Shown: in pieces, positions 4,799 through 63,991 of the stretch | Layout of the letters: each line of letters begins with the position of its first letter | Numbering within the stretch: the stretch's first letter is position 1 | From: Candidatus Nomurabacteria bacterium | GTDB taxonomy: Bacteria > Patescibacteriota > Saccharimonadia > JAGOAT01 | Length of the DNA: 64,000 bases | Direction: 5' to 3' | NCBI GenBank assembly: GCA_020639315.1 | Contig: JACKGM010000002.1 | Location: 222,321-286,320, forward strand | Program-made: the position numbers and the translations under genes | Notes under the pieces: model-generated | What the model saw: the letters and a program-made list of their open reading frames with translations, nothing else | Told to the model about the DNA's origin: nothing | The model's database searches: none

Positions 4799-5815
4799 CT
4801 AGGCTAGTTGATAATAATCATCGGGTAATCGCTTGAAGTCCTTATTGTTTTGAAGGTTGAGTGAGACAGTAGAAGCTTTAACTTTTCTAACAGCCAATAC
4901 TTGTTTGACAATCTCTGCCTTCTTATGTGGTTTACCGTCAGCCAAGATTTGCCTAATCACATCTGCTACTGTTCCAGATTTGTATCCCCACTCGGCCAAA
5001 GCATAAATACCTCGACCGATCAAAATAAACCGTTTGTCTTTTATCAGCTCATTATGAACAGCCTGAGTAGTGACTGTCTTATTATTGCCAATACCTTGAA
5101 TTCTTTTGGCAATATCTGAAAAATGCAATGGTTTTTGAGCTTTTTTGAGAGCAATATACATCCTATCTCGGATTGACCTTGGGTTGACACTAGGCCAAAT
5201 ATGAAGACCCCAGAGATTGTCTAATTCCCTAATCATCCTTGAGCTACTAGCAAGGTGCTCAATTGTCTTATCATGGTGCTTACCTTCAAGTTCTGACAAC
5301 AACTTTTCGAGCTTAACTGGTTTGTTATAAGTTTTTAAGATCCTGATTAGACTATCATGTAAGTCAATGATATCTTCTGCGCAATAAACTTTTTTGTCCA
5401 ACACTATACATTCGTATAAATCATGCTTATCTATCAGGATAAATTCTGGATTGGTTTCAAGTAAAAACTTAAGATTTTGAATATCTTGCTCATCAAGCTT
5501 CAATCGTTCTAGCAAGGCATCAAATGCGATAAGACCCCCTGTCTCTTGCAACAATGTAATCACTTCTTCTGAGAGTTGATGCCTATGATCATGGAGGGTT
5601 TTTAGTCTCTTGGTTGCTGCTTTTTCTATTTGCCTGACCCGTTCCCTAGTCACCCCAAGCTGCTGCCCAATCTGCTCTAAAGTATGGTTATCATTACCAA
5701 GGATTGCGAATCTTCGAGAAATTATATCCTTGTCTCGATCTTTTTTAAGAATCGAAAGATACTCTTTGACTAAATCTGCTAGGCTACTACTATTGATCGT
5801 ATTTACTTTACTCAT
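4799..5815 (-). CDS. Sigma-70 region-4-like HTH protein with C-terminal HARE-HTH-like domain
   Basis: LEQIGQQLGVTRERVRQIEKAATKRLK matches sigma region 4.2. The C-terminal part (HFSDIAKRI...FILIGRGIYALAEWGY) resembles HARE-HTH (RNAP delta-like). Confidence 0.5.
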   Translation of the reverse strand: MSKVNTINSSSLADLVKEYLSILKKDRDKDIISRRFAILGNDNHTLEQIGQQLGVTRERVRQIEKAATKRLKTLHDHRHQLSEEVITLLQETGGLIAFDALLERLKLDEQDIQNLKFLLETNPEFILIDKHDLYECIVLDKKVYCAEDIIDLHDSLIRILKTYNKPVKLEKLLSELEGKHHDKTIEHLASSSRMIRELDNLWGLHIWPSVNPRSIRDRMYIALKKAQKPLHFSDIAKRIQGIGNNKTVTTQAVHNELIKDKRFILIGRGIYALAEWGYKSGTVADVIRQILADGKPHKKAEIVKQVLAVRKVKASTVSLNLQNNKDFKRLPDDYYQLA

Positions 5816-8718: not shown

Positions 8719-8770
8719 TACTTGACATCATTATAAACTATCATCAGCCCAAAATCAAAACTTCCCTTTT

Positions 8771-8830
8771 CAAGGGCACCCCTTGCAATTTTATATCTGT
8801 TGACATAGTGATTTTCAAGGGCACCCCTTG
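8771..8830. repeat. Palindrome doublet, family 1 (arm CAAGGGCACCCCTTG x2, 30-nt spacer)
   Basis: Arms at 8771-8785 and 8816-8830, centres 45 bp apart. The same element occurs at 25983-26042 and 50501-50560. Confidence 0.9.
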
Positions 8831-8858
8831 AAAATCACTTATTTAAATACCAAAATAC

Positions 8859-12759: not shown

Positions 12760-12822
12760 TATATATCAAACTATCAAGATATCCAAAATAAATTTGACTA
12801 ACATATTACACCACATTTCCTG

Positions 12823-12884
12823 TCGCGAACTGTTCGCGATTTTTACTAACTTACCAGATTACGAATGTCGCGAACAGTTCGCGA
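12823..12884. repeat. Palindrome doublet, family 2 (arm TCGCGAAC(T/A)GTTCGCGA x2, 28-nt spacer)
   Basis: Arms at 12823-12839 and 12868-12884, centres 45 bp apart. Confidence 0.9.
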
Positions 12885-12936
12885 TATTTTGATTTTGCGA
12901 AGCTTGTCAATACCTGTAAAACAAACCTACTCAAAA

Positions 12937-21011: not shown

Positions 21012-21173
21012 ATAGCAAGATCAAAACAAAACCGGACAATTTGAGCTGTACTATAGAGAACTAGAAAGGTAGTTATTCTTAAGAGCCATATTCATAGATA
21101 TGGTGAGTAAGAAAACTAGCTTTATAGACTCTAGAGTTGGGTCAAAAGTCTGGTTTTGGTTTTAACTTGCTAT
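21012..21173. mobile_element. MITE-like element, short copy 1 (~162 bp)
   Basis: Near-identical to 28959-29122. Imperfect ~30-bp terminal inverted repeats: ATAGCAAGATCAAAACAAAACCGGACAATTTG / CAAAAGTCTGGTTTTGGTTTTAACTTGCTAT. Confidence 0.75.
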
Positions 21174-21649
21174 ATATCAGCTGACCCTTGGTGTGTTCTT
21201 ACAAAAACCTGGTCTATTCCAGCGCCTAGACGGTATCTTGCTGGGAAAAGCCCAGTTGTCTCAGAAGTCTTGTCATTAAATACCTGAGTAAACAATGCCT
21301 CTGAGTCTTTTTCGTCTATCAATATAGCACTTAGCCCAGCTTGATCTTTCTTCTTAGTCTTGAAATTAATTATTATCTCTTCTGATGAAAATCGCAGCCC
21401 TGTTATAACTAAATCATTAGCAGCATCTTTCTGATGGACTACTCCATAGAGAAAACTCAGTAGCTCCTGCTCTGTCCAGAATACACCATACCATATATCA
21501 TCTTCTTCTTTGCCAAAACTACTTACCAAGGAGTCATAAACAAATCCTTCATTTACCCCCCCCTGTGCAAATAATCCCCCGATGAACTTCTCTACTCTCT
21601 GGTCTTTATATTCACCATATTCACCTGTTTCTAACTCCAATCCGCTCAT
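21170..21649 (-). CDS. Hypothetical protein
   Basis: 159-aa ORF; its stop codon lies inside the MITE terminus. Confidence 0.45.
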   Translation of the reverse strand: MSGLELETGEYGEYKDQRVEKFIGGLFAQGGVNEGFVYDSLVSSFGKEEDDIWYGVFWTEQELLSFLYGVVHQKDAANDLVITGLRFSSEEIIINFKTKKKDQAGLSAILIDEKDSEALFTQVFNDKTSETTGLFPARYRLGAGIDQVFVRTHQGSADI

Positions 21650-25944: not shown

Positions 25945-25982
25945 TATACCATGCCAACCACTCTCCTCAAAAACCCCAGTTT

Positions 25983-26042
25983 CAAGGGCACCCCTTGACC
26001 TTTTTGATCTGTTGACTATTGCCTTTTCAAGGGCACCCCTTG
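25983..26042. repeat. Palindrome doublet, family 1
   Basis: Arms at 25983-25997 and 26028-26042, centres 45 bp apart. Confidence 0.9.
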
Positions 26043-26109
26043 AAAAAACGAGTTTAAAAAAATTAGACTAATAACCCTACTGGGATAAGCCTATTTACTA
26101 AACCTTAAT

Positions 26110-28958: not shown

Positions 28959-29122
28959 TATAGCAAGCTCAAACAAAACCGGACAATTTGAGCTGTACTA
29001 TAGAGAACTATAAAGGTAGTTCTTCTTAAGAGCCATATCCATATAGGTATGGTGAGTAAGAAAACTAGCTTGATAGACCCTAGAGTTGGGTCAAAAGTCT
29101 GGTTTTGTTTTTAACTTGCTAT
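28959..29122. mobile_element. MITE-like element, short copy 2, abutting the 3' end of rnpB
   Basis: Aligns end to end with 21012-21173; ends ...AACTTGCTAT immediately before the rnpB P1 3' strand. Confidence 0.75.
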
Positions 29123-29457
29123 GGGAGGTAGCTGGCTATAAGCCGAATTCTGTCCAACACATTTAGTGTCTGGATAATCATTTATCTTAGCGTCATACCC
29201 TTAGGCCAATTACTTGACCTAGACGGCGAGCAGCCTGGGTCCATTAGACTTGCAGCAGACAGGGTTTACCCCTAGATTATGTCGCCATAATCTACTGTGA
29301 GCTCTTACCTCACTCTTTTCACCCTTACCCGCAATGGGCGGTATTGTCTCTGTGGCACTTTCCCTAGGATTGCTCCTGGTCACAGTTAGTGACTGTCTTT
29401 GCTCTGAGCTGTTCGGACTTTCCTCCGCCAAAGCGGCGATTACCCACCAACTACCAT
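29123..29457 (-). ncRNA. rnpB: RNase P RNA, bacterial type A
   Basis: The minus strand contains GGAGGAAAGUCCGAAC (CR-I), GUGCCACAGAGACAAUACCGCC, GGUAAGGGUGAAAAGAGUGAGGUAAGAGCUCAC, GGUAAACCC and ACAGAAUUCGGCUUAU (CR-V). P1 pairs GGUAGUUGG with CCAGCUACC. Confidence 0.93.
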
Positions 29458-30117: not shown

Positions 30118-30353
30118 TTTTGGCCTCCTTTATTGTTATCTAGAGTTATAATGCATTGGTTCAAGCTGATTTGATCTCTGTATAAAAATTACCAAACCAA
30201 TACATCATAAGCCCAGTTTAATAGTGGCTTGATGATACTACGAGGGCTGTAAGCTAACCCACAATGACTAGCTAATCATCCTGATTGTCCCAGTAAAATT
30301 GATATTTTGCAAGCATGAGCAATTTAAAACTTAACATTACATCATATTTTTTG

Positions 30354-30415
30354 TCGCGAACTGTTCGCGACTTTTGGTGCCTTCCCAGATTAGAAATGTC
30401 GCGAACTGTTCGCGT
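30354..30415. repeat. Palindrome doublet, family 2
   Basis: Arms at 30354-30370 and 30399-30415 (last base T), centres 45 bp apart. Confidence 0.9.
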
Positions 30416-30461
30416 AATTTAGATTTTTACCATCATGTCAAGCCCCTAGACCCAACACCCT

Positions 30462-30991: not shown

Positions 30992-32299
30992 ATGTCAGCT
31001 GAAAAACCTAATACTCAAACTCTTGAGACATCAACAGATCTAAACAAAATAATAGCAACTATAAATGCACTTCAAGCCAGTATACAAGATCTTGAGGTTG
31101 AGATATCTAGGCTCCAAGGGCAATATGCGGATACAACCACTAATAGATATAGAGCATATTTCACAGATGCCCCAAAAAACACTTCTACAGATGATGATTT
31201 ACGCCGTGCAGTAGACCATCTAGCCCACCTAAGGCAACAAAAAGCAGACCTTGAGGGGGTAGTAACAAGTTTTAGGTTACTAAGTTTTGTCACGCCAGTG
31301 GAGTCTGCCCCCACAACAACTAACCAACCAACTTATCGCCCAACTATAACTATCCAAGATAATCGGGCAGAGATAGATGTTCGAAATCCTAACTTGGATA
31401 AACCAACTCACAATAAGCGCGCCCAGGATACTGGTATTAACCATAACGAGATCAAGGTTCCTTCAATGCAAGAGGTCGGATTACTTAGCGCAACCGAAGA
31501 AAACTTACCACGAATTGTTGAGCTACATAGGCTACTATCGTATATTGACACAATGTCAATTAAAGCTAGGCTCGACATACCTATAGAAATTCTAGTCCTA
31601 CACGGCAAAATAAATCAACTAATTTCAGAGGCTATAAGAAAAGATCTACTTACTGGCTTTCAGGTTAAAACCCTACTAACATCTACAGAACTAGATGCTA
31701 TGATGCTACCCAAAGAATCTAAGACCACCTTCCATTGTGCAGCTATCTTTATAGACTTTGCAAACCTTAAAAAGGTTAATGATACCGTAGGTCATGGGGC
31801 TACTGATGCAATACTATTTAAAGCTATTTTTGCAGTCCTCCTTGATAATATTAGAGAAACTGACGCTATCATACGCTGGGGAGGAGATGAATTTGTGATT
31901 TTTGTTACTTCTGAAGATAATCCTGGTCTAGATTTCGAATCATTTCTAAAGATGGTCACTGAAAAAGTTGGGTTAATATCAAAAACAGATGTAAAAGAAG
32001 CTAATTACACTAACGAAGTAGGGGAAACTATAACAACTACTTTAAACGCAGGCTTTACAATCGGTGTCGCTGCTATACCCGCCGATCAACAAAGACAGTT
32101 CCTAGAAGATCATCAGCAAAAGCCTTCAATGGCTCTAGTAGAGGTAGCAGATTATGCTATGTATCAAGGTAAGGATAATAATACAAGACAAGCTCCACCT
32201 ACCTCAACAAGAGCTACTAAAGACTTTCATGATCACCCATCATATTCAGGAACATCATATTCAGGAAATGGAATCCATTGCCTAGTCTATAACCCCTAG
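30992..32299 (+). CDS. GGDEF-domain diguanylate cyclase with coiled-coil/low-complexity N-terminal region
   Basis: RWGGDEFVIF active-site motif, upstream DFANLKKVNDTVGHGATD. Start moved to the first ATG (the ORF track begins at a TTG at 30971). Confidence 0.85.
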   Translation: MSAEKPNTQTLETSTDLNKIIATINALQASIQDLEVEISRLQGQYADTTTNRYRAYFTDAPKNTSTDDDLRRAVDHLAHLRQQKADLEGVVTSFRLLSFVTPVESAPTTTNQPTYRPTITIQDNRAEIDVRNPNLDKPTHNKRAQDTGINHNEIKVPSMQEVGLLSATEENLPRIVELHRLLSYIDTMSIKARLDIPIEILVLHGKINQLISEAIRKDLLTGFQVKTLLTSTELDAMMLPKESKTTFHCAAIFIDFANLKKVNDTVGHGATDAILFKAIFAVLLDNIRETDAIIRWGGDEFVIFVTSEDNPGLDFESFLKMVTEKVGLISKTDVKEANYTNEVGETITTTLNAGFTIGVAAIPADQQRQFLEDHQQKPSMALVEVADYAMYQGKDNNTRQAPPTSTRATKDFHDHPSYSGTSYSGNGIHCLVYNP

Positions 32300-35200
32300 C
32301 TACACCCGCTAGTCTGCCCACACTGCTCACAGACGGCGCAAGTCCCAGTCTTGGTCATTGGAATCCCACAGTTTGAACAGAGTGGAGACTCATCGATTGG
32401 CCCTTTGTAAGCAGTAGACTTCTTTAGCTGAGGCTCGACTTCTTGCTTGGTCTCTGTATTCTCAGGCTCAACTTCAGACTTTGACTGCTCGATCTTAGTA
32501 TCAGCCAAGTCTGGGATCAACTGCCCTTGACCAGGTGCGACTCCAGCTAGATCAGCCTCTTTCTCCGCATTAGTCTTGATTCCCAAGCTATGTCTTTTAT
32601 CCGCCGGCAAGAAATTGACTGCCAGCTCTCTAGCAATCAAATCCATCACCGAACTGACAAAAGTGAAATTATCAGAGTTAGCAAAGCCCTTGGGTTCAAA
32701 TTCCATATTGACAAACTTTGAGACAAAAGCATCAAGCGGCACTCCATGCTGAAGACCCATCGACATCGCGATTGCTAGAGCGTCAACAAAGCCTGAAAAA
32801 GTTGAACCCTGCTTCCCTCCCCCGATAAATATCTCACCTGGGGTGCCATCAGGATACATTCCGACGGTTACATAGACCTTGAAGCCATTAACCTTTAGGG
32901 CAAATGTTTTAGAATCTCGTGTACTTGGTAACTTAACTCGGTTGGTAACTGGAGCATGTCGAGCAACCTGAGCTGTGTCCTTCTGGGTTGGTTGATTACC
33001 ATCTGACTTTTCTTTCTTCGAACTACTCATAGGTTGGGTAGCTTTGGAGTTATTGCGGTAGATAGCTACAGCCTTGAGTCCCAACCTCCAAGCATCAAAA
33101 TGTGCCTTTTCGACATCTTCCACAGTTGCTACTTCTGGCATATTAACAGTCTTGGAAATTGCACCAGAAAGAAATGGTTGGACAGCAGCCATCATCGCCT
33201 CGTGTGCATAGATCGAGAGATACCTACCACCAATTGCTTCCTGAAAAGCAGTATCAAATACCAAATAATCTGTCTCCTTGACTGCAGGCGCACCGACAAT
33301 CGAACTATTATCTTCGACATAGGCAATGATATCTCCTATCTGAGTTGCAGTATAGCCTAATCTTCTGAGAGCCCTCTCTACAGTCTGATTGACTATAATC
33401 ATCTCGTCCCCCGATACTTTTTGCTTATTTTTCTTAAGAGCGAGATCTGGTTCGACACCAGTAGTATCATTGTCCATCATAAACCCACTTGTACCCATAG
33501 GGGCCAATACTGACATATGAGCGTTGCTATAGCCATAAATCTCACCCAACTCTACTGCTTGACCCCAGGCCTGCTTGGCCTGCTCCCAAGCTTTGGCCAA
33601 ATGTGGATCCTCGGCTACCGGCAAACCAGCTCCTACTATTTCATTGTAGAAGATATCTATATGATTATCTGGACCAAATTTAATACTATTTGCCTGAGCC
33701 TGAGCACTAGGTTCAGCCCCGATTGCATCGGCATAATCTCGGTGAAGTTTAGCGACTTTCATATGGGCTAATTTATTCTCAGGGTCTTCAAAACCTGGTC
33801 TCCCCATCTCTGGATCTCCAGGATAGCTCCCCCAGACTCGAGCAATCGTACTAGATGTCTGATAAATCTGAGCCTGCATCTGAGCAGTAATCACAGCTGC
33901 CCACGCTCGACCTTCCATACTATCGTAGCCATACCCACTAGCCATCAACATTGCTCCGAGATTAGTATAGCCTTGGCCGATCTGTAAAAATCCCCTTGCC
34001 ACCCTAGCAATATTTTCAGTCGGGTAATCTCCATATTTTGCCATAATAGTTTGAGCGATGGCCACTACCTCTACTGCCCCGACAAAACCCTCCTGGTCCC
34101 AAGACCCATCTTGGTTAAGAAACTTAAGTAGATTGGTTGCTGCAAGATTACAAGGTGAGTTATCAAGGTGCATATACTCACTACAAGGATTAGACCCATT
34201 GATCCTTCCGGCAGCTGGAGTAGTATGCCAGAAATTCACCGTAGTATCAAACTGCAACCCAGGATCTGCACATTCCCAAGCTGCTTTGGCAATCTTAGCC
34301 CACAAATCAGTTGCTTGATAGCTAGGAGTCTCTTTCCAGATTAGATTTGGCTTTCTAGCTTTGGTCTTCCAGATACCATCTTCGAGCAAAGTCTCCATGA
34401 ATTGATTACTAATCCTGACAGAATTATTAGCATTTTGAAACTGGATATGATATCCATCTCGGTTGTCGGCTACCGATACTCGAAATCCATTCTGAGCCAA
34501 GGTTCTCGCTACTTCTTCAGCTTTGACTTTGAGCTGGATAAAACCTTCGCTACCATCAGCCTGTTCGTAGATATCTGGATGATCGATGTCAAGTACGACC
34601 ATCTTGGCTGCTCGTCTAGTCCTACCACCAGATGCCATCGTACCAGCACTGGCATCGGCCGCTCGCATATATGAGCAAGGACCTGAAGCCTTACCTCCCT
34701 TGGTGATTCCCTCATAGCTAGATCGAATTTTTGACAAATTAACTCCAGCACCAGATCCACCCTTGAATACTGTCCCTTCTTCACGATACCAATTAAGAAT
34801 TGAAGCCATATTGTCTTCTACTTCTAGGATAAAGCAAGCACTTGACTGCTGGGGGGTCCCTTCGACCCCAATATTGTACCAGACAGGAGAATTAAAATTG
34901 ACCTGCTGGGTAACGATCAGATATTTGAGATCAGCGGCAAAATTTTCAGCTGACGCCTGATCAGCAAACAGAGGCTTGACCTTGGCATAGTCAGGCAGCT
35001 CAAATTTATCACCATTATAATCAGTCTCCCGCCCCTTAAGACCCCATTTGACAATAGTATCCACCACCCGATCAATTGATTCGAGTACGCTAGTCTCTCG
35101 CTCTGGGGTGTCTAATCTTCCCCTGAGGTAGTGCTGAGCAAAAATACTTAAGGCATTATCACTCCAAGAGGCAGGCACTTCTATCCCCCTCTGCTCAAAC

Positions 35201-35334
35201 ACCACCTCTTTAGTCATAAAATTCTTCAGTACTACATCCCTGACTTCGGTCTCAATCTCTGCATATGGATCCAGAGAAGGCGAAAACTTTCTATGATAAA
35301 CTAGACCCTCTGAATTAGTTGTTGTAGCACTCAT
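32296..35334 (-). CDS. nrdJ: Class II (adenosylcobalamin-dependent) ribonucleotide reductase
   Basis: GSNPCSEYMHLDNSPCNLAATNL active-site region, ~1000 aa, C-terminal CSNC...CAVCEQC zinc ribbon. Confidence 0.9.
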   Translation of the reverse strand: MSATTTNSEGLVYHRKFSPSLDPYAEIETEVRDVVLKNFMTKEVVFEQRGIEVPASWSDNALSIFAQHYLRGRLDTPERETSVLESIDRVVDTIVKWGLKGRETDYNGDKFELPDYAKVKPLFADQASAENFAADLKYLIVTQQVNFNSPVWYNIGVEGTPQQSSACFILEVEDNMASILNWYREEGTVFKGGSGAGVNLSKIRSSYEGITKGGKASGPCSYMRAADASAGTMASGGRTRRAAKMVVLDIDHPDIYEQADGSEGFIQLKVKAEEVARTLAQNGFRVSVADNRDGYHIQFQNANNSVRISNQFMETLLEDGIWKTKARKPNLIWKETPSYQATDLWAKIAKAAWECADPGLQFDTTVNFWHTTPAAGRINGSNPCSEYMHLDNSPCNLAATNLLKFLNQDGSWDQEGFVGAVEVVAIAQTIMAKYGDYPTENIARVARGFLQIGQGYTNLGAMLMASGYGYDSMEGRAWAAVITAQMQAQIYQTSSTIARVWGSYPGDPEMGRPGFEDPENKLAHMKVAKLHRDYADAIGAEPSAQAQANSIKFGPDNHIDIFYNEIVGAGLPVAEDPHLAKAWEQAKQAWGQAVELGEIYGYSNAHMSVLAPMGTSGFMMDNDTTGVEPDLALKKNKQKVSGDEMIIVNQTVERALRRLGYTATQIGDIIAYVEDNSSIVGAPAVKETDYLVFDTAFQEAIGGRYLSIYAHEAMMAAVQPFLSGAISKTVNMPEVATVEDVEKAHFDAWRLGLKAVAIYRNNSKATQPMSSSKKEKSDGNQPTQKDTAQVARHAPVTNRVKLPSTRDSKTFALKVNGFKVYVTVGMYPDGTPGEIFIGGGKQGSTFSGFVDALAIAMSMGLQHGVPLDAFVSKFVNMEFEPKGFANSDNFTFVSSVMDLIARELAVNFLPADKRHSLGIKTNAEKEADLAGVAPGQGQLIPDLADTKIEQSKSEVEPENTETKQEVEPQLKKSTAYKGPIDESPLCSNCGIPMTKTGTCAVCEQCGQTSGCS

Positions 35335-35549: not shown

Positions 35550-36005
35550 CTACTGTTTGCGACGAATCTTACGAAGCTCCTGAGCAAAGCTTTCAATATC
35601 ATCAAACCTTCGATAGACACTGGCAAATCTGATATAAGCGACTTGATCCAAGCCGAGCAAGCCTTTCATCACTTCTTCTCCTACTTGAGAAGAGGGGACT
35701 TCTGCCTCACCCATCGACTTCAGACTCTGCTCAATCTGATTGATCAACGACTCAATCTTGCTCTGAGCTACCGGTCGTTTTTCCAATGCCCGGTATAGTC
35801 CAGCTGCTAACTTGTGTCTAGAGAAAGCTTGCCGATTGCCATCTTTTTTAATGATTACTAGCTGAGCCGACTCTACCCTCTCATAAGTCGTAAATCTCTG
35901 CTGACAATCATTACACTCTCGCCTGCGTCGGATCACTGACCCCCCTTCCAAATCACGGGATTCTATCACTCTACTAGCTGAGGTTTGACAATGTAAACAA
36001 TTCAT
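35550..36005 (-). CDS. nrdR: Transcriptional repressor NrdR
   Basis: MNCLHCQ...CNDCQQRFTTYE zinc ribbon plus ATP-cone. Confidence 0.95.
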   Translation of the reverse strand: MNCLHCQTSASRVIESRDLEGGSVIRRRRECNDCQQRFTTYERVESAQLVIIKKDGNRQAFSRHKLAAGLYRALEKRPVAQSKIESLINQIEQSLKSMGEAEVPSSQVGEEVMKGLLGLDQVAYIRFASVYRRFDDIESFAQELRKIRRKQ

Positions 36006-36022
36006 CTTTTGCGTGTTATGTG

Positions 36023-36081
36023 CGCTCTATATATAGCGTAGCCTGTATTTACTATAGCACTAGCCTGACTAAGCATGTCAA
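36023..36081 (-). promoter_or_regulatory. Putative nrdR promoter with two NrdR-box-like AT-core palindromes
   Basis: Minus strand has TTGACA (36076-36081), 19 nt, then TATAGT (36051-36056). Boxes are CGCTCTATATATAGCG (36023-36038) and GTATTTACTATAGCAC (36045-36060). Spacing and box matches are imperfect. Confidence 0.3.
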
Positions 36082-36120
36082 GCCAGTTTACGAAAAAAGT
36101 TTTTAAAATCCTGTGGATAA

Positions 36121-36571
36121 TACATCCTCCGAATCCTCCTTGAGAAGGTTACGGGATCCAGTATCTATAGCATTGTCATCTTGCAAATACCAGAGGGTTT
36201 ACGGGGGATCCAGTATTCCAGCATTTGCATTGTCATCCTCCGAATTATCCTTAAGAGAATTACGGGGGATCCAGTATCTCGCATTGTCCTGACTCCTAAT
36301 ACAAATACTGGATCTCCGGTATTTCCCCAAGGGGAAATCCGAAGATGACAAGAGGGGATGGATCTCCCATAAACCCCTGCCGGATTTTGGAAGATGACGC
36401 GAAGAGGGGGCGGAAATTTGGGTTGATGACAGAGGGAGCATTGTCATCCTCCGAAACCCACCCCTCTCCTGTCATCCTCCGAAGTTCGGAGAACTTACGG
36501 GGGATCCAGTATTCCCGCATTTGCATTGTCATTCTCCGAATTCTCATGGAGAATTACGGGGGATCCAGTAT
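36121..36571. repeat. Hairpin-unit cluster 1 (class A units +, class B/C units -, plus half units)
   Basis: Units at 36121-36164, 36175-36216, 36231-36277, 36470-36512 and 36527-36571 (+), and at 36305-36350 and 36358-36398 (-). Half modules at 36399-36437 and 36442-36469. Confidence 0.9.
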
Positions 36572-36596
36572 CTCGCATTACCATGGGTCTAATTCA

Positions 36597-36721
36597 ATGA
36601 TTTTTATTGCGTGTTGGCAAAGCACGGCAAAGGATAACAGCCATATACTGCGCAGTGATTTATAAATTTGAGATAAAAAGGGTAGTTTTTACGCCATGAA
36701 ATTATATGGCAACAGGGTTAT
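36597..36721. repeat. ~125-nt conserved element, copy 1 (one terminal repeat only), directly downstream of ftsZ stop
   Basis: Shares ATGATTTTTATT..., AAA(A/G)CACG(A/G)CAAAG(C/G)ATAACAG, CTGCG(A/C)AGTG and the terminal TTATATGGCAACAGGGTTAT with 38715-38840. Confidence 0.6.
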
Positions 36722-36737
36722 CGAAGGAACAAGTCTA

Positions 36738-38225
36738 CTAAAGTTTCTCTTTAACAAAATCTGGCATATCAGAATCCGTACCATCAGAGGAGCTTAACTT
36801 AGAATTAAGACCTGATTTATTACTAGAGTTTCTCAAATAGGCAGGCTTATCAAACTCATCATCTTCAAAACTAGGGGTTTGAATACTAACAGTCTCTACC
36901 CTCTCTTCAACAATGTCAAATCCTGAACCCAAACCGGAACCATAGTCCATCTGGTCGGATTCCTGATTCTGCCTAGGCTCTTCTGGGTCTGATTTATGGC
37001 GCCTCAGTAGTCTACCCCCTAGACCAGTTTTACTTGACTGAGAACTAAGCTCTAACTCAGCACCAGACCCCAAGTCAGCATCAACCATTGCACTGATATC
37101 CTCACTTTGGGCACGGCGAATTTCAGCAACTTGATCATTTCTGCTTGACACCACATTACTACTATAGCTAGCGCTGGATTGAGCCTTGATGGTTGTATTG
37201 TAGCTAGAAGAACTACTACTATTACCAAAACCAAAGCTATTACTACCACCAACACTAGATCTGAGTGGCCTAGGCAAATCAAATCCAGTCGCTACTAAGG
37301 TCACTCGGATTTCACCAGTCATATTTTCATCCAAAACAGTACCCCAAATAATATTGGCCTCTGGGTCTACTTCATCATGGATTAGCTTAGCGGCCTCTTC
37401 GATCTCCTGCATACCAAGATCTCTACCCCCAGTGAAGTTAATCAGTACTCCCCTAGCACCATTGATCGAAACATCCAGTAGTGGAGAATCCATCGCTTGT
37501 CTGACTGCTAGGATTGCCCGATTGTCCCCAGATGCCTGACCGATACCCATTAGGGCTGAACCTGCATGCTCCATAATAGACTTGACATCAGCAAAATCTA
37601 GATTGACCAAGCCATTGATCGTAATCAGGTCTGATATACCCTGAATACCTTGATGCAAAATCTCATCTACAGTTGAAAATGCATCAATCAAAGAAGTCTT
37701 ATGGTCTATAATCTGAGAAATCTTATCATTGGGAATGATGATCAAGGTATCTACCTTGTCCCGAATCTCCTCGATCGCTCCCTCGGCAATCCTCCTTCTT
37801 CGATCCCCTTCAAAGCTAAAAGGCTTGGTCACTATACCGACTACCAGTGCTCCTACCTCTTTAGCAACCTTGGCAATAGTCGGGGCAGCACCAGAACCAG
37901 TACCACCACCAAATCCAGCAGTCAGAAACACCATCTCTGCGCCTTGTAATGCTTCCCTGATTTGTTCTTCATTTTCCTCGGCTGCCTGGCGACCGACATC
38001 AGGATTAGCTCCAGCCCCTAGCCCCTTGGTAGTATTCTTACCAATATGAAATTTATGAGCAGATTTTGAATAGTGCAAAGCTTGGGCATCGGTGTTAATT
38101 ACTATAAACTCTACCCCTTTAAGCTTAGATTGAATCATCCGATTGACTGCATTGCCCCCACCTCCGCCAATGCCTACTACTTTGATTCGAGCAAAAGTCT
38201 CGATTGCTGGCAAAATTTCTGCCAT
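36738..38225 (-). CDS. ftsZ: Cell division GTPase FtsZ (long disordered C-terminal linker)
   Basis: [13 protein letters not shown] and [12 protein letters not shown] tubulin signature. Confidence 0.97.
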
Positions 38226-38444
38226 TATTCCCTCCTATGATGTTATAAATTGCTAATGGTATTTTTATTTGGTTAGACTCCCGACCAATCAATTTGTATT
38301 GAACAGTAGTTATAAATACTAGTCTAAGCTAGTTGTTCAACAAATGCAAGTTTTTTATACACAAGTTTTTACTAACTTGATAAAGAGTACATATATTATT
38401 CATATCCTTCACTCTGATGTCAGCACAGGACTTTCGCACTTCCT

Positions 38445-38670
38445 TGTCATCCTCAAAAAATCTATGAGAGTTCAATTCAAATACTGAATATCCCATAATT
38501 TCTTACAGAAATTTGGAAGATGACGGTGCAATGCCATTAACTTAAGACTTTGTAAGTTTTATTCAATGTACAAGTCAAGCATTAGTAGAACTCCAAAAGG
38601 TACTGATCTCTCCTTAAGTTAACGGTATTGAGATGACACGGGGGGCGGAAATTTGGGCTATTGACAGAGG
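38445..38670. repeat. Hairpin-unit cluster 2, distal part
   Basis: 5' half unit at 38445; class C unit (-) at 38481-38525; degenerate unit (-) at 38600-38638; GGCGGAAATTTGGG module at 38639-38670. Confidence 0.8.
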
Positions 38671-38676
38671 AGGAAT

Positions 38677-38839
38677 TAACCCTGTTGCCATATAAACTTG
38701 CGAGGTCAAAGCTGATGATTTTTATTCCAGAATACCAAAACACGACAAAGCATAACAGGAGTTACGCTGCGAAGTGTTTTGCTAGTCTGGGGCAAAAATG
38801 GCAGTTTTGAAGCCGTGAGGTTATATGGCAACAGGGTTA
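38677..38839. mobile_element. ~163-bp element with perfect 19-bp terminal inverted repeats (MITE-like), copy 2 of the 125-nt element
   Basis: TAACCCTGTTGCCATATAA (38677-38695) and TTATATGGCAACAGGGTTA (38821-38839). The interior is homologous to 36597-36701. Confidence 0.65.
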
Positions 38840-38840
38840 T

Positions 38841-38993
38841 TGTCATCCTCCGAAACCCGAAGGGTTTACGGGGGATCCAGTATTCGGCATTGCGCATTGT
38901 CATCCTCCGAAGTTCGGAGAACTTACGGGGGATCCAGTATTTCAGTATTTGTCAAATCAAAAATCAAGGGAATTTACAAAAAAAAACCAGTAT
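38841..38993. repeat. Hairpin-unit cluster 2, ftsA-proximal part
   Basis: Class A units (+) at 38841-38883 and 38898-38940, with a degenerate TGTCA...CCAGTAT remnant to ~38993. It ends 2 nt before the ftsA stop codon. Confidence 0.85.
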
Positions 38994-38995
38994 CT

Positions 38996-40216
38996 CTACC
39001 TAATAAGAGACTTAAACAACCCAGAGGCCTTATCGATCAAAGATCCGATTACTGAATTGACCCCGCCCTGATGGTAATCCTCAATCTCTACCCCTCGAAG
39101 CATCACACCGATCCCAGATGACATCGATGGCTCATTTACCTGCTCAACTATCCCAACAATATTCTCTGGTCCAGATATCTTGACTGGTAGTTTCAAACAT
39201 TCGCGGGCTAACTCCTCTATCCCATAAAGCTTTGCCCCACCACCAGTAAGGATTGCCCCTCCAGCAAGCTGGGTATTCATTCTAGCTAACCTGATCTCTT
39301 CAGCGACCAGGCCAAATATTTCCTCTACCCGTGAGCTCACTACATCTATCACTAGCTGTCTTTCTATCCTCCTATCTAGTCCGTAATTGGCTAGATCTAT
39401 CTCACTAGCTGGGTTATTAACAATATCTTTATAGTCTAGCTTGAGCTTCTCGGCAATCTCAAGGTTGACCTGCAGAGCATGGACGAGGTCTCGACTGATA
39501 TTAAGTGAACCAGCTGGGATTACCCTAGTCCAAACCGGTTGACCCTCACTATATATCACCAGCCCAGTCGTCTCAGCACCAAAGTCCAGGACGATTATCC
39601 CTCGCTCTCTTTGTTGTTTATTACTCACCGCTTCAGCACTAGCTAGGATACTAGGCTGATAATCCAGTACTCGTATTTCTAACCTAGACAATACATTATC
39701 AATCTGTCTAATTGTCGGGCTCCCAGCAATTAGTACATGCATACTACTCTCTAGCTTGATACCATTCATCCCTAGTGGGTCAATTATCCCTCCCTGACCA
39801 TCGATCAAGTAAGCTTGGGGTATAATGTCTAATATTTGCTGGTTTGGATTAAGCCTCATTGCTGCCGCTGCTTTATGCAACCTATCAATATCCTCTGCCT
39901 TAATAATCCTATCGTCACTGACGATCGCCACAGTAGCCTCAGTATTAACACTAGTAATCGCTGAACCATTCACCCCAACTACCGCCTGACTAATAGTAAT
40001 CCCAGACATCCTTTCAGCCTCTTCAATTGCTGCACTTAATGCAGAAATAGTTTCTTCAGGATCAACAATCACCCCCTTACGCACTCCAGATACTGGACTA
40101 ACACCCAGACCAATCACGCTAGGCATCGAGGAAATCTCCTGGATCAACCCCACTACACAGCAAACTTTGCTACTGCCAAAATCAATCCCGACTATAATCT
40201 TTTCTTTCTGCTTCAT
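38996..40216 (-). CDS. ftsA: Cell division protein FtsA
   Basis: Actin-fold motifs IVGIDFGSSKV and VLDFGAETTG...GGGAKL. Confidence 0.93.
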   Translation of the reverse strand: MKQKEKIIVGIDFGSSKVCCVVGLIQEISSMPSVIGLGVSPVSGVRKGVIVDPEETISALSAAIEEAERMSGITISQAVVGVNGSAITSVNTEATVAIVSDDRIIKAEDIDRLHKAAAAMRLNPNQQILDIIPQAYLIDGQGGIIDPLGMNGIKLESSMHVLIAGSPTIRQIDNVLSRLEIRVLDYQPSILASAEAVSNKQQRERGIIVLDFGAETTGLVIYSEGQPVWTRVIPAGSLNISRDLVHALQVNLEIAEKLKLDYKDIVNNPASEIDLANYGLDRRIERQLVIDVVSSRVEEIFGLVAEEIRLARMNTQLAGGAILTGGGAKLYGIEELARECLKLPVKISGPENIVGIVEQVNEPSMSSGIGVMLRGVEIEDYHQGGVNSVIGSLIDKASGLFKSLIR

Positions 40217-50448: not shown

Positions 50449-50500
50449 GCTTCACCCCTCTCATTCCACGCCACTCCCCCTCACCCAAAAATCCCAATTT

Positions 50501-50560
50501 CAAGGGCACCCCTTGCGATTTTATACCTGTAAAGCACCCTCTTTTCAAGGGCACCCCTTG
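50501..50560. repeat. Palindrome doublet, family 1
   Basis: Arms at 50501-50515 and 50546-50560, centres 45 bp apart. Confidence 0.9.
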
Positions 50561-50622
50561 CAAAAAAGGTTATGGCAAAATAGGGGTGATTTTGGGCAGG
50601 AGTTCGGTTATACTAAGTAGGT

Positions 50623-54013: not shown

Positions 54014-54116
54014 TAAAATAAAACAAATTTTATACTCACCCTAACACCCTAATTATATCACTTACCTAATATTATACAACTCAACCCCCAAACCCTCTCC
54101 AAACCGATCGCGTCAA

Positions 54117-54178
54117 TCGCGAACTGTTCGCGATTTTTAGCACCTTTCCAGATTAGAGATGTCGCGAACTGTTCGCGA
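54117..54178. repeat. Palindrome doublet, family 2 (upstream flank of RAYT-like gene)
   Basis: Arms at 54117-54133 and 54162-54178, centres 45 bp apart. Confidence 0.9.
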
Positions 54179-54295
54179 AATTTATTAAATATTTATACAT
54201 AACACGATACTTATGCTTGCAAATAACCCCAAAACAGTTAAGATATGACTAACTTCGTTATCTTTATAGTCCACTACTAAAATGGTTTAAATCTC

Positions 54296-54850
54296 ATGTC
54301 CGCCAGAAACACCTACAGATACAAGGTCGATAATACATTTTTGCATATATACTCTCGTGCCAATAATAAAGTTCCAGTATTTATCAATCAGAAATACTTT
54401 GATAAATTCTTAGATATCTTACTATTTTTACTTACGACTGATGACAATTTAGCCGACTCCCTTAGGTTATTTAGTAGACCTAGAAAACCATGTCAAAACT
54501 TTTCCAAAAATATCAACCTCGTGTCTTTCTGCATAATGAACAATCACTATCACCTTATAATCTATATTAAAGATAGTGATAAGTTACCAAAATTCATGCA
54601 TTTGTTTCACAGAAAACTTACACAAATTATCAACTCTGATCAAAATAAAGTTGGTCATCTGATGCAAAGTAGGTACAAATCTAGACCAATATTATCAGAA
54701 GTAGACTTGCTAAATGTATCTGCCTATATTCAACTAAACCCAAATGAAATTCATCCACAAGATAGCAACTACTACCTCAGATACCCCTTCTCTTCGCTCA
54801 ATTCAACTCATATGATTTCTAAAGTAGTCAGTACTAATATGATTTTTTAG
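54296..54850 (+). CDS. IS200/RAYT-like Y1 HUH transposase (REP-associated tyrosine transposase-like)
   Basis: FCIMNNHYHLIIY (HUH), GHLMQSRYKS (catalytic Tyr context), AYIQLNPNE...YYLRYPFSS tail. AT-rich gene flanked by family-2 doublets on both sides. Confidence 0.7.
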   Translation: MSARNTYRYKVDNTFLHIYSRANNKVPVFINQKYFDKFLDILLFLLTTDDNLADSLRLFSRPRKPCQNFSKNINLVSFCIMNNHYHLIIYIKDSDKLPKFMHLFHRKLTQIINSDQNKVGHLMQSRYKSRPILSEVDLLNVSAYIQLNPNEIHPQDSNYYLRYPFSSLNSTHMISKVVSTNMIF

Positions 54851-54992
54851 GTACACCAGTATTTCAAAGCAACAATATCTTGAATATCTTAATGCCAAAT
54901 CCAAGGATTTTGCAGAATATCAAATTATCAAAAAATCCCTATAGTAAATGATGGAAATTATCAAAATACAATATATTATGCAATATTTTTTG

Positions 54993-55054
54993 TCGCGAAC
55001 TGTTCGCGATTTTTAGCACCTTACCAGATTAGAGATGTCGCGAACTGTTCGCGA
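54993..55054. repeat. Palindrome doublet, family 2 (downstream flank of RAYT-like gene; overlaps 3' end of nadD)
   Basis: Arms at 54993-55009 and 55038-55054, centres 45 bp apart. The nadD stop codon (55029-55031) lies in the spacer. Confidence 0.9.
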
Positions 55055-55634
55055 AAAGTTGATTTTTGGTGATGTAGTCAAGGACTGGCTGGCTGAGTCC
55101 TTGGGGAGCTTGGCGATTGGCTAATTGTTGGCGGATTTGGGTGGCTGAAGTCAAATCATCTATCATTGCGACCTCTTGATATCTCAGACTAGGAATGGAT
55201 CGAAGTTTTGCCTGGATTTGTTTTGACTGATGATGATAACCTGCTCGCTTAATCCAGACGAAACCTACTCGATGTTCGAGTAGATAATCTAGCCCCTGCC
55301 ACTGATCGAGATTGGTAATCCCGTCACTACCCAAAACAATATCGACCTTAAGACCCTTGCCATAGATCTCAAACAAATCCTCCACTACCTGATAATCTAT
55401 TACTCTGGCTTCTGACTGAAAGTCATACTTATCGAGCACCGCTTGTCTATTGCCCAATCCCAATCTCAGCATTGCTTTACGATCGTCAAAACCAACTAAA
55501 CCTGCCAAGTTCCTCCGATTCTCGAGCAAGATTATTACCTCATCATAGTCCCTTGATGATAGATAGTCTACTACTGCGAGATGCCCCTGATGAACGGGGT
55601 TAAAACTTCCTGAGTACAAGGCTAGCTGGTTCAA
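55029..55634 (-). CDS. nadD: Nicotinate-nucleotide adenylyltransferase
   Basis: YSGSFNPVHQGHL motif. The last 8 codons (FANSSRHL*) are encoded by the repeat. Confidence 0.85.
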   Translation of the reverse strand: MNQLALYSGSFNPVHQGHLAVVDYLSSRDYDEVIILLENRRNLAGLVGFDDRKAMLRLGLGNRQAVLDKYDFQSEARVIDYQVVEDLFEIYGKGLKVDIVLGSDGITNLDQWQGLDYLLEHRVGFVWIKRAGYHHQSKQIQAKLRSIPSLRYQEVAMIDDLTSATQIRQQLANRQAPQGLSQPVLDYITKNQLFANSSRHL

Positions 55635-62410: not shown

Positions 62411-62527
62411 CGTCTTATCTTACCACAAAACCCCGCCCAATAGAATTAAATCTAAACGAACCTTACCGGCCAAATCAACCCTCTTTTTCTTTCTTTGGGC
62501 TTGCGTTATGGCAGTTTACAATACAAA

Positions 62528-62963
62528 ATACTGGATCCCCCGTAAGTTCTCCGAACTTCGGAAGATGACAGAAGAGGGACAGGTTTCGGAGGATGACAGG
62601 AGTTGGTCACCAAACCAAATTTCCGCTCTCTCCGCGTGTCATCTTCCAAAATCCCTTACTCCTCGCGTGTCATCTTCGGATTTCCCTTTAGGGAAATACC
62701 GGAGATCCAGTATCTGGATTGGATTCCAAAAATGCGAAATGCTGGATCCCCCGTAAGTTCTCCGAACTTCGGAGGATGACAATCCCCTTCCCGTGTCATC
62801 TTCGGATTTCCCCTTGGGGGAATACCGGAGATCCAGTATCTGGATTGGATTCCAGAAATGCGAAATGCTAGATCCCCCGTAAGTTCTCCGAACTTCGGAG
62901 GATGACAATGCCCTTTTGTGTCATCTTCCAAATTTCCGTAGGAAATTATGGGAGATCCAGTAT
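62528..62963. repeat. Hairpin-unit cluster 3 (class A units -, class B/C units +; 125-126 bp higher-order period)
   Basis: Units at 62528-62570(-), 62668-62713(+), 62739-62781(-), 62794-62839(+), 62865-62907(-) and 62919-62963(+). Half modules at 62571-62598, 62608-62636 and 62637-62667. Confidence 0.9.
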
Positions 62964-63270
62964 TTGAACCACAAATTTTAATAACCTGAACACAATATTT
63001 ATTTTTGATTTTTTGTGACTATAAATGAGTACCAAATTAGCTACAATATTAACTATTGGCTAGAGTAAAATATTTACTCAGCCTTCAGCCAAACACCTAG
63101 CAAACAATTTTGGTATGAATAATAATTGATTTCCCTAGCTAAAACGCTAGAGAGACTAGCTGTACTAGTTTTTACTATGGATTTTTGACACCGACTTAGT
63201 CCGCAATCATATGCCAATGTATCCATTCAGATTATTATTTTTTTTAACTTACTTACTCCCTAAATATAGG

Positions 63271-63847
63271 ATACCCAAAACCAAACCGGACAATTTGGGA
63301 CTACTAATAAAGAGTTGGAAAGTTAGTTCATTTTATGAACCTTACTTATCTATTTAAGCCAAAATATTAAAATACCGCTATGTCGCAAAATATTATTTAC
63401 TATTACCTTTACCCCCAAGTATTCTCTTCTCTTTTGCCATCCTCCGAGTAGCTAGCTCTGTTTATTGTCATCCTCCGAAACCTGTCCCTTCTTTCTACCG
63501 CCCTCCGAAGTTCGGAGAACTTACGGGGGATCCAGTATTCCCGCATTTGCATTGTCATCCTCCGAAACCCGAAGGGTTTACGTGGGATCCAGTATTTTGC
63601 ATTCCTGAGGCTCAACTCAAATACTGGATCTCCCATAATTTCCTACGGAAATTTGGAAGATGACTAGAGGAGAGTATTGTCATCCTCCGAAGTTTGGAGA
63701 ACTTACGGGGGATCCAGTATTTTGTATCTGGAGTCATCAACAAAAGACAAGTTGGTTTTAGGTTAAGATTAGTATCCATAGTATACCCAAAACAAAACCA
63801 GCATTAGTAGTCCCAAATTGTCTGGTTTTGGTTTGGACATGCTATAG
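63271..63847. mobile_element. Long member of the MITE family (~577 bp) enclosing hairpin-unit cluster 4
   Basis: Left arm CCCAAAACCAAACCGGACAATTTGGGACTACTA (63274-63306) and right arm TAGTAGTCCCAAATTGTCTGGTTTTGGTTTGG (63805-63836). The left ~75 nt align with the short MITE left half, and the element ends ...ACATGCTAT. Confidence 0.6.
63434..63720. repeat. Hairpin-unit cluster 4
   Basis: Class A units (+) at ~63499-63538, 63553-63595 and 63678-63720. Class C unit (-) at 63621-63665. Half modules at 63434 and 63466. Confidence 0.85.
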
Positions 63848-63991
63848 ATATAATATTGAGTTTTATTCTACACTATTGCTCTAAATCTTTAACCTTATTG
63901 CAGGCAATGCCAGAAACTTTTGCAAATGTAAACTAAATCAGCTATGATATTGACATAAGGGGTTCTGATCAATTTAAAGGAGAAAACCTAT

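Follow-up and report, generated by a model that had tools for sequence, protein, structure and literature searches.

Mosaics of short hairpins that surround genes are known from several bacterial repeat classes. Repetitive extragenic palindromes (REPs), the building blocks of bacterial interspersed mosaic elements (BIMEs), carry a GTAG-type tetranucleotide 5′ of the hairpin and are recognized as a folded single strand by REP-associated tyrosine transposases (RAYTs). In Neisseria, the intergenic mosaic elements (NIMEs) consist of dRS3 hairpins separated by RS elements (PMC1797815), and the NTS repeat, which encompasses the dRS3 hairpin of these arrays, has been generalized as the Ssn-related motif (SRM) (Chenal et al. 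2025, PMC11893778). NTS/SRM hairpins are recognized by GIY-YIG Ssn nucleases: the small nuclease SsnA binds and cuts NTS solely as single-stranded DNA (ssDNA) and in one orientation only, the GTC before the stem being critical for cleavage and the C after the stem—the most critical base—for binding, while extensions at the loop position are tolerated (PMC11893778). NTS cluster around genes, an NTS-gene-NTS layout lowers transformation, and hairpin clustering on either side of genes has been described for Neisseria, Rhizorhabdus, and Wolbachia (PMC11893778). Here, we analyze two repeat-filled spacers that bracket the cell division gene ftsZ in a 64-kb stretch of DNA (the window; contig JACKGM010000002.1) from a Saccharibacteria-type bacterium of the candidate phyla radiation (CPR), the nearest named relatives of its FtsZ being Saccharibacteria. 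The reading that we favor, with a probability of roughly 0.7, is that the spacers hold NIME/BIME-like mosaics of SRM-like hairpins and a miniature inverted-repeat transposable element (MITE), inserted and amplified in tolerant gaps between transcription units, with ftsZ and nrdR on their own promoter-like sequences. Gene-surrounding hairpin mosaics as such are known; what is new is a long-stem form with a T·G wobble and a bulged A, in a CPR genome that also carries a RAYT/REP pair and MITEs.

The first important finding is that both gaps around ftsZ are among the largest in the window and are built mostly of repeats. Among the 50 gaps between open reading frames (ORFs) of at least 110 amino acids, the median is 26.5 nt and 30 measure 100 nt or less, while the nrdR-ftsZ spacer (spacer 1, 36006-36737, 732 nt) and the ftsZ-ftsA spacer (spacer 2, 38226-38995, 770 nt) rank second and third in size. 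An earlier model's note made from the letters alone (hereafter the sequence-only reading) had these coordinates and sizes exactly right, and its description of the genome as tightly packed holds broadly, although nine gaps exceed 300 nt, seven of them besides the two at ftsZ. Repeat DNA covers 83% of spacer 1 (36117-36722) and 65% of spacer 2 (38443-38942). The hairpin arrays noticed in both spacers are beyond chance, as the core TTACGGGGGATCCAGTAT has 17 matches at three or fewer mismatches versus 0.04 expected, and the 5′ arm of the unit has 22 versus 2.0. In total, the window holds 20 full units, all within four noncoding blocks (seven at 36117-36575, three at 38443-38942, six at 62526-62965, and four at 63434-63722), and the spacers flanking ftsZ account for 10 of the 20, plus several 5′ half-units.

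A unit of ~46 nt consists of (T)TGTC, an 8-bp basal stem, a variable apical hairpin with a freely varying stem of 5-8 bp, a bulged A, the 3′ basal arm, and CCAGTAT. Units fall into three co-varying subfamilies, with basal stems ATCCTCCG/CGGGGGAT in class A, ATCTTCGG/CCGGAGAT in class B, and ATCTTCCA/TGGGAGAT in class C; all have a common fold as ssDNA, and both orientations give stable hairpins (−8.8 to −10.5 kcal/mol as DNA). When 24 units were aligned (20 from the window, three from metagenome contig L029, and one from metagenome contig L031), 93.6% of the alignment cells were paired, versus 79.9% after shuffling and at most 57% with the partners slid, and two-sided changes were found in 10 of the 15 stem pairs. 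The T·G wobble at stem position 5 occurs in 24/24 units, and the bulged A is likewise invariant. Because the wobble becomes a C·A mismatch on the complement, selection appears to act on one strand of the folded form. Furthermore, conservation of the mismatch, the bulge, and the single-stranded flanks while the apical stem varies suggests that the folded strand, most likely as ssDNA, would be recognized by a protein.

Besides full units, the window contains about nine 5′ half-units, in which TGTCATC and the 5′ arm are followed by a C-rich tail; what had been listed as a separate "class D" module is such a half-unit in inverted orientation. In L029, five tandem half-units of 28-29 nt (TGTCATCCTCCGAAACCCGTCCCTTGTCT, sense strand) at 1340-1500 adjoin full A and C units, which makes the half-unit a repeat type in its own right. 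The elements are arranged as 57-nt A-A doublets and as an inverted composite (full-half followed by half-full), which is intact at 36357-36514 and, inverted, at 62527-62654, while two insertions interrupt the spacer 2 version. At 62663-62914, two tandem copies of a 126-nt segment (94% identical), each with one class B and one inverted class A unit, show that arrays grow by local duplication. In the spacers flanking ftsZ, class A lies on the plus strand and classes B and C on the minus strand, and a read-through transcript of ftsA and ftsZ would, as previously stated in the sequence-only reading, carry class A in antisense and class C in sense. We also considered a CRISPR array and rejected it: neighboring units are separated by 10-15 nt or directly adjoin other repeats, they face either way, and they belong to three subfamilies.

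The match of the unit flanks to NTS/SRM is the second important finding. The SRM 5′ flank HGTCWY is found before the palindrome as a near-invariant TGTCAT (G, T, C, A, and T all ≥90%), the 3′ flank RNCYNB (ATCYRG), with its C after the stem, is found as ATCCAG in nearly all units, and the SRM pattern with its loop widened to 0-30 nt matches 13 units versus 1.03 in shuffles. Because the unit flanks agree with the SRM signature at every specified position, we propose that the units are a long-stem SRM-like variant, the partner enzyme of which would be encoded outside the window. Important similarities with NTS/SRM (PMC11893778) are the TGTCAT flank, the adjacent palindromic stem, and the ATCCAG flank, from which the unit gains an orientation; the many copies in intergenic arrays on both sides of genes; and the conservation of the bases critical for SsnA. 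The main differences are that a bulged A and a 5-8-bp apical stem take the place of the 0-5-nt loop, that the basal stem of the window units has an invariant T·G wobble and their tail is lengthened to CCAGTAT, that 5′ half-units exist, and that the host is a Saccharibacterium, not a member of Pseudomonadati, with no ssn gene in the 64 kb. This long-stem, T·G-wobble, bulged-A form is missed by the published SRM search pattern. That the wobble is invariant on one strand would be consistent with strand specificity of cleavage.

These parallels raise the possibility of an NTS-like guard against recombination or transformation, in which the paired arrays would be kept because they restrict or pattern the allelic replacement of ftsZ. 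Natural competence is known for Saccharibacteria (PMC10633639), the flanks match NTS/SRM at the very positions that SsnA needs for binding and cleavage, a key gene has hairpin clusters on either side as in Neisseria, Rhizorhabdus, and Wolbachia (PMC11893778), and the strand asymmetry suits action on ssDNA. However, no ssn homologue is present in the window, the units face both ways in each array, and the closest relative compared (L003, see below) does without arrays. Moreover, bracketing of ftsZ is not significant on its own, since with ~4 blocks and ~20 gaps >120 nt we roughly estimate the probability of chance adjacency at 0.1-0.3. We thus regard such a guard as unlikely. A broader proposal, that classes A, B, and C would be an undescribed long-stem Ssn-type branch extending from Proteobacteria to CPR, cut as ssDNA by a nuclease encoded elsewhere, with the arrays as a recombination barrier or patterning device at ftsZ, is doubtful as well. 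If a cognate nuclease exists, the units would be well-defined substrates for it, with a bearing on how competent genome-reduced epibionts police incoming DNA.

A pattern scan of one genome for each of 185,579 species found no genome with the exact A/B/C family. The same scan found 21 loci in other phyla with single units of like design, about 10 of which are expected by chance according to our estimate. These units consist of GTCATCCTCG, a variable hairpin, A, and TCGGGGATCCAGTAT, and they share the T·G wobble, the ATCCTCG/CGGGGAT stem, and the CCAGTAT tail with the window units; where a clear hairpin is present, it folds as in the window. Their hosts are Rhodomicrobium, Legionellales, Neisseriaceae, Brevundimonas, Gracilibacteria, Berkelbacteria, and other Patescibacteria, and canonical short SRM hairpins such as CGTCATTCCCGCGCAGGCGGGAATCCAG lie within ~600 nt in 6 of the 21 loci. 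One locus, L005, provides a positive control, with a GIY-YIG ORF (Pfam E = 2e-15) 65 nt from an SRM and a like-design unit beside it; it was the only positive when the window and all compared loci were searched for GIY-YIG. In a metagenome scan with the class A core, seven contigs matched, with true units only in L029 and L031, and a protein search with the concatenated spurious ORFs of the repeats returned a single match, the nrdR-ftsZ spacer in another sample. In a metagenome-assembled genome of Patescibacteria (L022), two SRM-like units at 5273-5381 lie inside a long ORF (4897-5808) and are apparently read through in frame, which is reminiscent of Rickettsia palindromic elements.

The other described mosaics are less similar. 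NIMEs (PMC1797815) share with the window arrays short palindromic hairpins mixed with other repeats and opportunistic insertions, a gene-flanking location, and a dynamic content. However, the A/B/C stems do not fit the dRS3 consensus ATTCCC-N8-GGGAAT, leaving the architecture alone as the similarity, the spacers between hairpins are often ~10-15 nt, and the flanked gene is a housekeeping division gene rather than a surface antigen. REP/BIME/REPIN systems with their RAYTs, from Enterobacteria and Pseudomonas, resemble the window in having extragenic imperfect palindromes (20-40 nt or more) with co-varying stems, inverted doublets and mosaics, and presumed recognition of an ssDNA hairpin; the window even holds a RAYT-like gene with its own REP family. 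The differences are a TGTC 5′ flank in A/B/C in place of a GTAG-type tetranucleotide, a resident RAYT flanked by another hairpin family, and the lack of support for A/B/C units having the mRNA-stabilizing role of Escherichia coli REPs. The earlier comparison with enterobacterial REPs is apt as an analogy, but the NTS/SRM class matches more closely (PMC11893778).

Could the A/B/C units nevertheless be the REPs of the RAYT-like Y1 transposase in the window, making this a classical REP/RAYT/BIME system? The ORF matches Pfam PF01797 (E = 7e-8) and, with 42.7 bits, below the cutoff of 80, NCBIfam REP_Tyr_transpos; the arrays hold inverted, REPIN-like composites; and TGTC precedes both hairpin families. 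However, it is a different hairpin, TCGCGAACNGTTCGCGA, that flanks the transposase gene on both sides as doublets (54099-54204 and 54975-55080), with further doublets of this family at 12805-12910 and 30336-30441. In a relative, the syntenic RAYT (L042/L043, 72% identical) is flanked by a compensated variant, TCGCGGACNGTCCGCGA, not by A/B/C, which indicates that the TCGCGAACNGTTCGCGA/TCGCGGACNGTCCGCGA family, and not A/B/C, co-evolves with the RAYT. Together with the absence of a GTAG-type 5′ motif from A/B/C, this different, co-evolving flanking hairpin led us to reject the RAYT as partner of A/B/C, an assignment that we consider highly improbable. Instead, TCGCGAACNGTTCGCGA and the RAYT-like ORF, which lies in a low-GC stretch (GC 0.32), are a resident REP/RAYT pair, and this lineage maintains ssDNA-hairpin machinery. 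Since the TCGCGGACNGTCCGCGA variant is also found in L003 (7733-7894), syntenic with the window copy at 30336, the TCGCGAACNGTTCGCGA REP family, in contrast to the A/B/C arrays, was present before the species split. In our literature search, RAYT or REPIN and CPR terms did not occur together in any paper.

The third important finding is that the two spacers share a 163-nt element that is a MITE, with inverted ends, a noncoding body, and copies with exact boundaries. The copy at 38677-38839 recurs in L031 (814-976) with 97.5% identity over exactly 163 nt and identical boundaries, in a different context with another gene and another repeat alongside. The two window copies share 137 nt (36586-36722 versus 38704-38841) at ~78% identity. 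The sequence-only reading had reported a repeat of ~125 nt in both spacers, which is real but longer than thought, and its distances from the stop codons agree with ours, the ends of copies 1 and 2 being 15-16 nt from the stop of ftsZ and 155 nt from that of ftsA, respectively. Its placement of the element between the hairpin array and the stop of the upstream gene is correct for copy 1, whereas two class A units separate copy 2 from the ftsA stop. The intact MITE sits between a half-unit and the following class A unit, and because these two modules are contiguous in spacer 1, it is a nested insertion. The arrays would have grown through duplication of composites (the full-half/half-full blocks and the 57-nt A-A doublets) and this nested insertion, and the MITE and the C-half composite common to both spacers suggest local spread or gene conversion.

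In line with known MITEs, the element is short and noncoding, has perfect 19-bp terminal inverted repeats and discrete boundaries, and exists as near-identical copies in different contexts. In both the window and L031, the flanking sequence would allow for a TA target duplication, which is indistinguishable, however, from the TA belonging to the inverted end itself. The differences are that we saw no parent insertion sequence with the same ends, scans of viral contigs having found nothing relevant, and that only three copies were seen. An RNA gene was dismissed, as the shared fold of the two copies is weak (−12 to −17 kcal/mol and 2-4 compensated pairs, from two sequences) and there is no Rfam match.

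Comparison with relatives bears directly on how the arrays arose. In L003, the closest relative compared (FtsZ 80% identical, 9.6 kb), the order ftsA-ftsZ-nrdR-nrdJ is kept, and the ftsA-ftsZ and ftsZ-nrdR gaps measure 342 and 122 nt and contain no units, versus 770 and 732 nt and 10 A/B/C units in the window. Units are also absent from the corresponding gaps of the more distant Saccharibacteria L033 (171 and 15 nt), L035 (257 and 9 nt), and L037 (354 and 11 nt), and of L038 (690 and 8 nt), the FtsZ protein of which is identical to that of L037. The arrays may thus post-date the split from L003, or may have been lost in L003. Homology between the window and L003 resumes at 38403-38423 and 36083, just upstream of conserved promoter-like sequences, which places the arrays between transcription units and not in a conserved leader. 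The ftsZ promoter-like sequence is TTGCAT (38349-38344), 17 nt, and TAGACT (38326-38321), within a core (38320-38363) that is 93% identical to L003 924-967, and a promoter scan found a second consensus match upstream, CTGACA-17-AATAAT (38423-38395). Upstream of nrdR are TTGACA (36081-36076), a 19-nt spacer, and an extended −10 TGcTATAGT (to 36051), followed by an AT-rich imperfect palindrome, CGCTATATATAGAGCG; we take 36006-36083 to hold a putative nrdR promoter and leader, and the palindrome to resemble an NrdR box. Since the arrays lie downstream of the ftsA and ftsZ stops and upstream of these conserved sequences, ftsZ and nrdR most likely keep their own control, as judged from sequence.

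The sequence-only reading had offered two views of the arrays: control of ftsA:ftsZ expression in the manner of REPs, acting on mRNA stability, attenuation, or processing, or a permissive landing site for repeats. The first would make the arrays a cis-regulatory RNA, with REP-like hairpins that protect mRNA 3′ ends, block read-through, or direct processing and thereby tune ftsA:ftsZ:nrdR. That the arrays begin 16-55 nt past the ftsZ and ftsA stop codons and that the hairpins are stable in both orientations would suit this role, as would the situation in distant relatives, where ftsZ and nrdR are 8-15 nt apart and presumably co-transcribed, and the arrays coincide with uncoupling of the two genes. 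However, L003 already has an nrdR promoter-like sequence and a 122-nt gap without an array, which implies that uncoupling predates the arrays. In addition, a search for terminator-like sites (GC-rich stem plus U tract) came up empty on the transcribed (minus) strand in both spacers, for which reason intrinsic terminators were rejected, and Rfam searches gave only RNase P (29123-29455) in the whole window at gathering thresholds and chance-level matches in the spacers at E values up to 5. The first feature after the ftsZ stop is the decayed MITE rather than a hairpin, and class A is antisense in transcripts, where T·G becomes C·A, so that the conserved strand is not the transcribed one. Finally, the same units are found in the unrelated region at 62.4-63.8 kb. 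With no units in L003, conserved promoter-like sequences, no terminator-like sites, and mixed unit orientation, REP-like control of ftsA:ftsZ is unsupported, and we hold a regulatory role to be improbable. Absence of the arrays from close relatives with an unchanged locus organization had been named in advance as the outcome that would speak against regulation, and this is largely what L003 shows.

The second view, a permissive landing site, fits the data: A/B/C units also populate the unrelated 62.4-63.8 kb region, a MITE is nested in an array, and the ftsA-distal part of the gap differs wholly between L037 and L038. In that last pair, the 211 nt of the ftsA-ftsZ gap proximal to ftsZ are 100% identical (L037 9647-10000 versus L038 9311-10000), while the ftsA-distal 143 and 479 nt are unrelated despite identical FtsZ proteins. 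The gap is thus hypervariable at the strain level in other Saccharibacteria, and the segment from the ftsA stop to the ftsZ promoter is apparently a recurrent insertion/deletion site in the phylum. The ftsZ-nrdR linkage has been rewired as well: in the window and L003, nrdR has its own promoter-like sequence and a palindrome that may be an NrdR box, whereas in L033, L035, L037, and L038 it starts 8-15 nt after ftsZ and is not followed by nrdJ.

We therefore favor tolerated repeat mosaics, in which noncoding mobile or amplifiable repeats would have accumulated, in this lineage only, in the two gaps around ftsZ. The arrays would be neutral, and any effect on expression, such as 3′-end protection or insulation, would be a by-product. 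Several observations weigh against this. The strict SRM pattern (loop of 0-5 nt) has no match in the window versus 0.19 in shuffled sequence, which it owes to the 15-19-nt loop of the units. No GIY-YIG/ssn gene was found in the 64 kb by motif scan or tblastn, and the sole ssDNA-hairpin enzyme that was found, the RAYT-like protein, is flanked by another hairpin family. The close-relative comparison rests on one genome, L003. Lastly, two of the four blocks flank one essential gene and share a MITE absent elsewhere in the window, which could reflect selection instead of local spread. If tolerated mosaics are indeed the explanation, the large gaps around ftsZ are recent repeat pile-ups beside intact promoter-like sequences and not an ancestral control region for division. 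At least three repeat systems can coexist in one small CPR genome, namely SRM-like mosaics, a RAYT together with the REP that co-evolves with it, and two families of MITEs.

A trivial explanation for such a locus would be an assembly artefact, with repeats collapsed or chimerically joined around ftsZ. The short-read contigs L001 and L002 do break inside repeats, at repeat boundaries, but they are 100% identical to the window up to the break points, and L025, from a separate ENA sample, spans the entire nrdR-ftsZ array with the same reading as the window. As these three independent assemblies from other samples agree with the window at 100% identity wherever they cover it, an artefact is effectively refuted, with a negligible residual chance; the sequence is real and the repeats are multicopy. 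In practice, this also means that the arrays break short-read assemblies right at ftsZ.

Table 1. Features of the ftsZ locus, the two further mosaic blocks, and the RAYT-like ORF (window coordinates)
Feature	Position	Strand	Remarks
nrdJ	32296-35334	minus	
nrdR	35550-36005	minus	
nrdR promoter-like region and leader	36006-36083	minus	93% identical to L003 2581-2651
Three class A units	36119-36164, 36172-36218, 36229-36279	plus	First degenerate; second with degenerate 5′ arm
Class B unit	36303-36351	minus	Sense strand
Class C unit	36357-36401	minus	Degenerate; sense strand
Back-to-back 5′ half-units	36404-36440, 36440-36468	minus, plus	Center of composite 36357-36514; first is former "class D"
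Two class A units	36468-36514, 36525-36573	plus	57-nt period
Older MITE copy	36586-36722	plus	Left end lost; right inverted end intact (36702-36720)
ftsZ	36738-38225	minus	
ftsZ leader and promoter-like region	38226-38423	minus	Homologous to L003 884-1084
Half-unit	38443-38472	plus	Degenerate
Class C unit	38479-38526	minus	Degenerate
Unclassified 102-nt insert	38529-38630		18-nt inverted arms, 89% complementary; separates C unit from its half-unit
5′ half-unit	38639-38677	minus	Former "class D"; homologous to 36404-36440 (84% identical)
Intact 163-nt MITE-like element	38677-38839	plus	Perfect 19-bp inverted ends (TAACCCTGTTGCCATATAA), 19/19 nt
Two class A units	38839-38885, 38896-38942	plus	57-nt period
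ftsA	38996-40216	minus	
RAYT-like Y1 (IS200-type) transposase ORF	54296-54850	plus	HYH motif; GHLMQSRYKS tyrosine motif
Third mosaic block	62526-62965		A minus (62526, 62737, 62863); B plus (62667, 62793); C plus (62918); three half-units
Fourth block	63434-63722		Two half-units; A plus (63494, 63551, 63676); C minus (63619)

The features collected in Table 1 lie in the local gene order ybeY-adk-map-ftsA-ftsZ-nrdR-nrdJ. The minus strand carries nearly every gene, GC skew is negative across the whole window, and a search for tRNA and tmRNA genes found none. Modules are closely related between blocks: the class B unit of spacer 1 is 96-98% identical to 62668-62713 and 62794-62839, the inverted composite matches the third block at 93% (36442-36513 versus 62598-62527) and 86% (36382-36430 versus 62654-62606), and 38443-38526 shares 90-92% identity with two C units, 63612-63664 and 62920-62968. 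The 102-nt insert of spacer 2 has no second copy in the window or in any compared locus; it is flanked on both sides by AGATGAC and is possibly another small mobile element.

A second family of MITE-like elements (~150 nt; inverted ends of the form AAAACCAAAACCRGAC...GTCTGGTTTTGGTTTT) is found at 21024-21177 and 28971-29126, the latter copy adjoining the RNase P RNA gene. A further copy is split, with ends at ~63268-63350 and ~63790-63850 and ~440 nt between them, and the fourth hairpin block is nested in it. An end related to this family also adjoins the 163-nt MITE in L031. Lastly, the hairpin CAAGGGCACCCCTTG, present twice per repeat, forms a third family with a repeat length of ~96 nt at 8756-8851, 25968-26063, and 50486-50581, each repeat occupying a 166-346-nt gap between genes.

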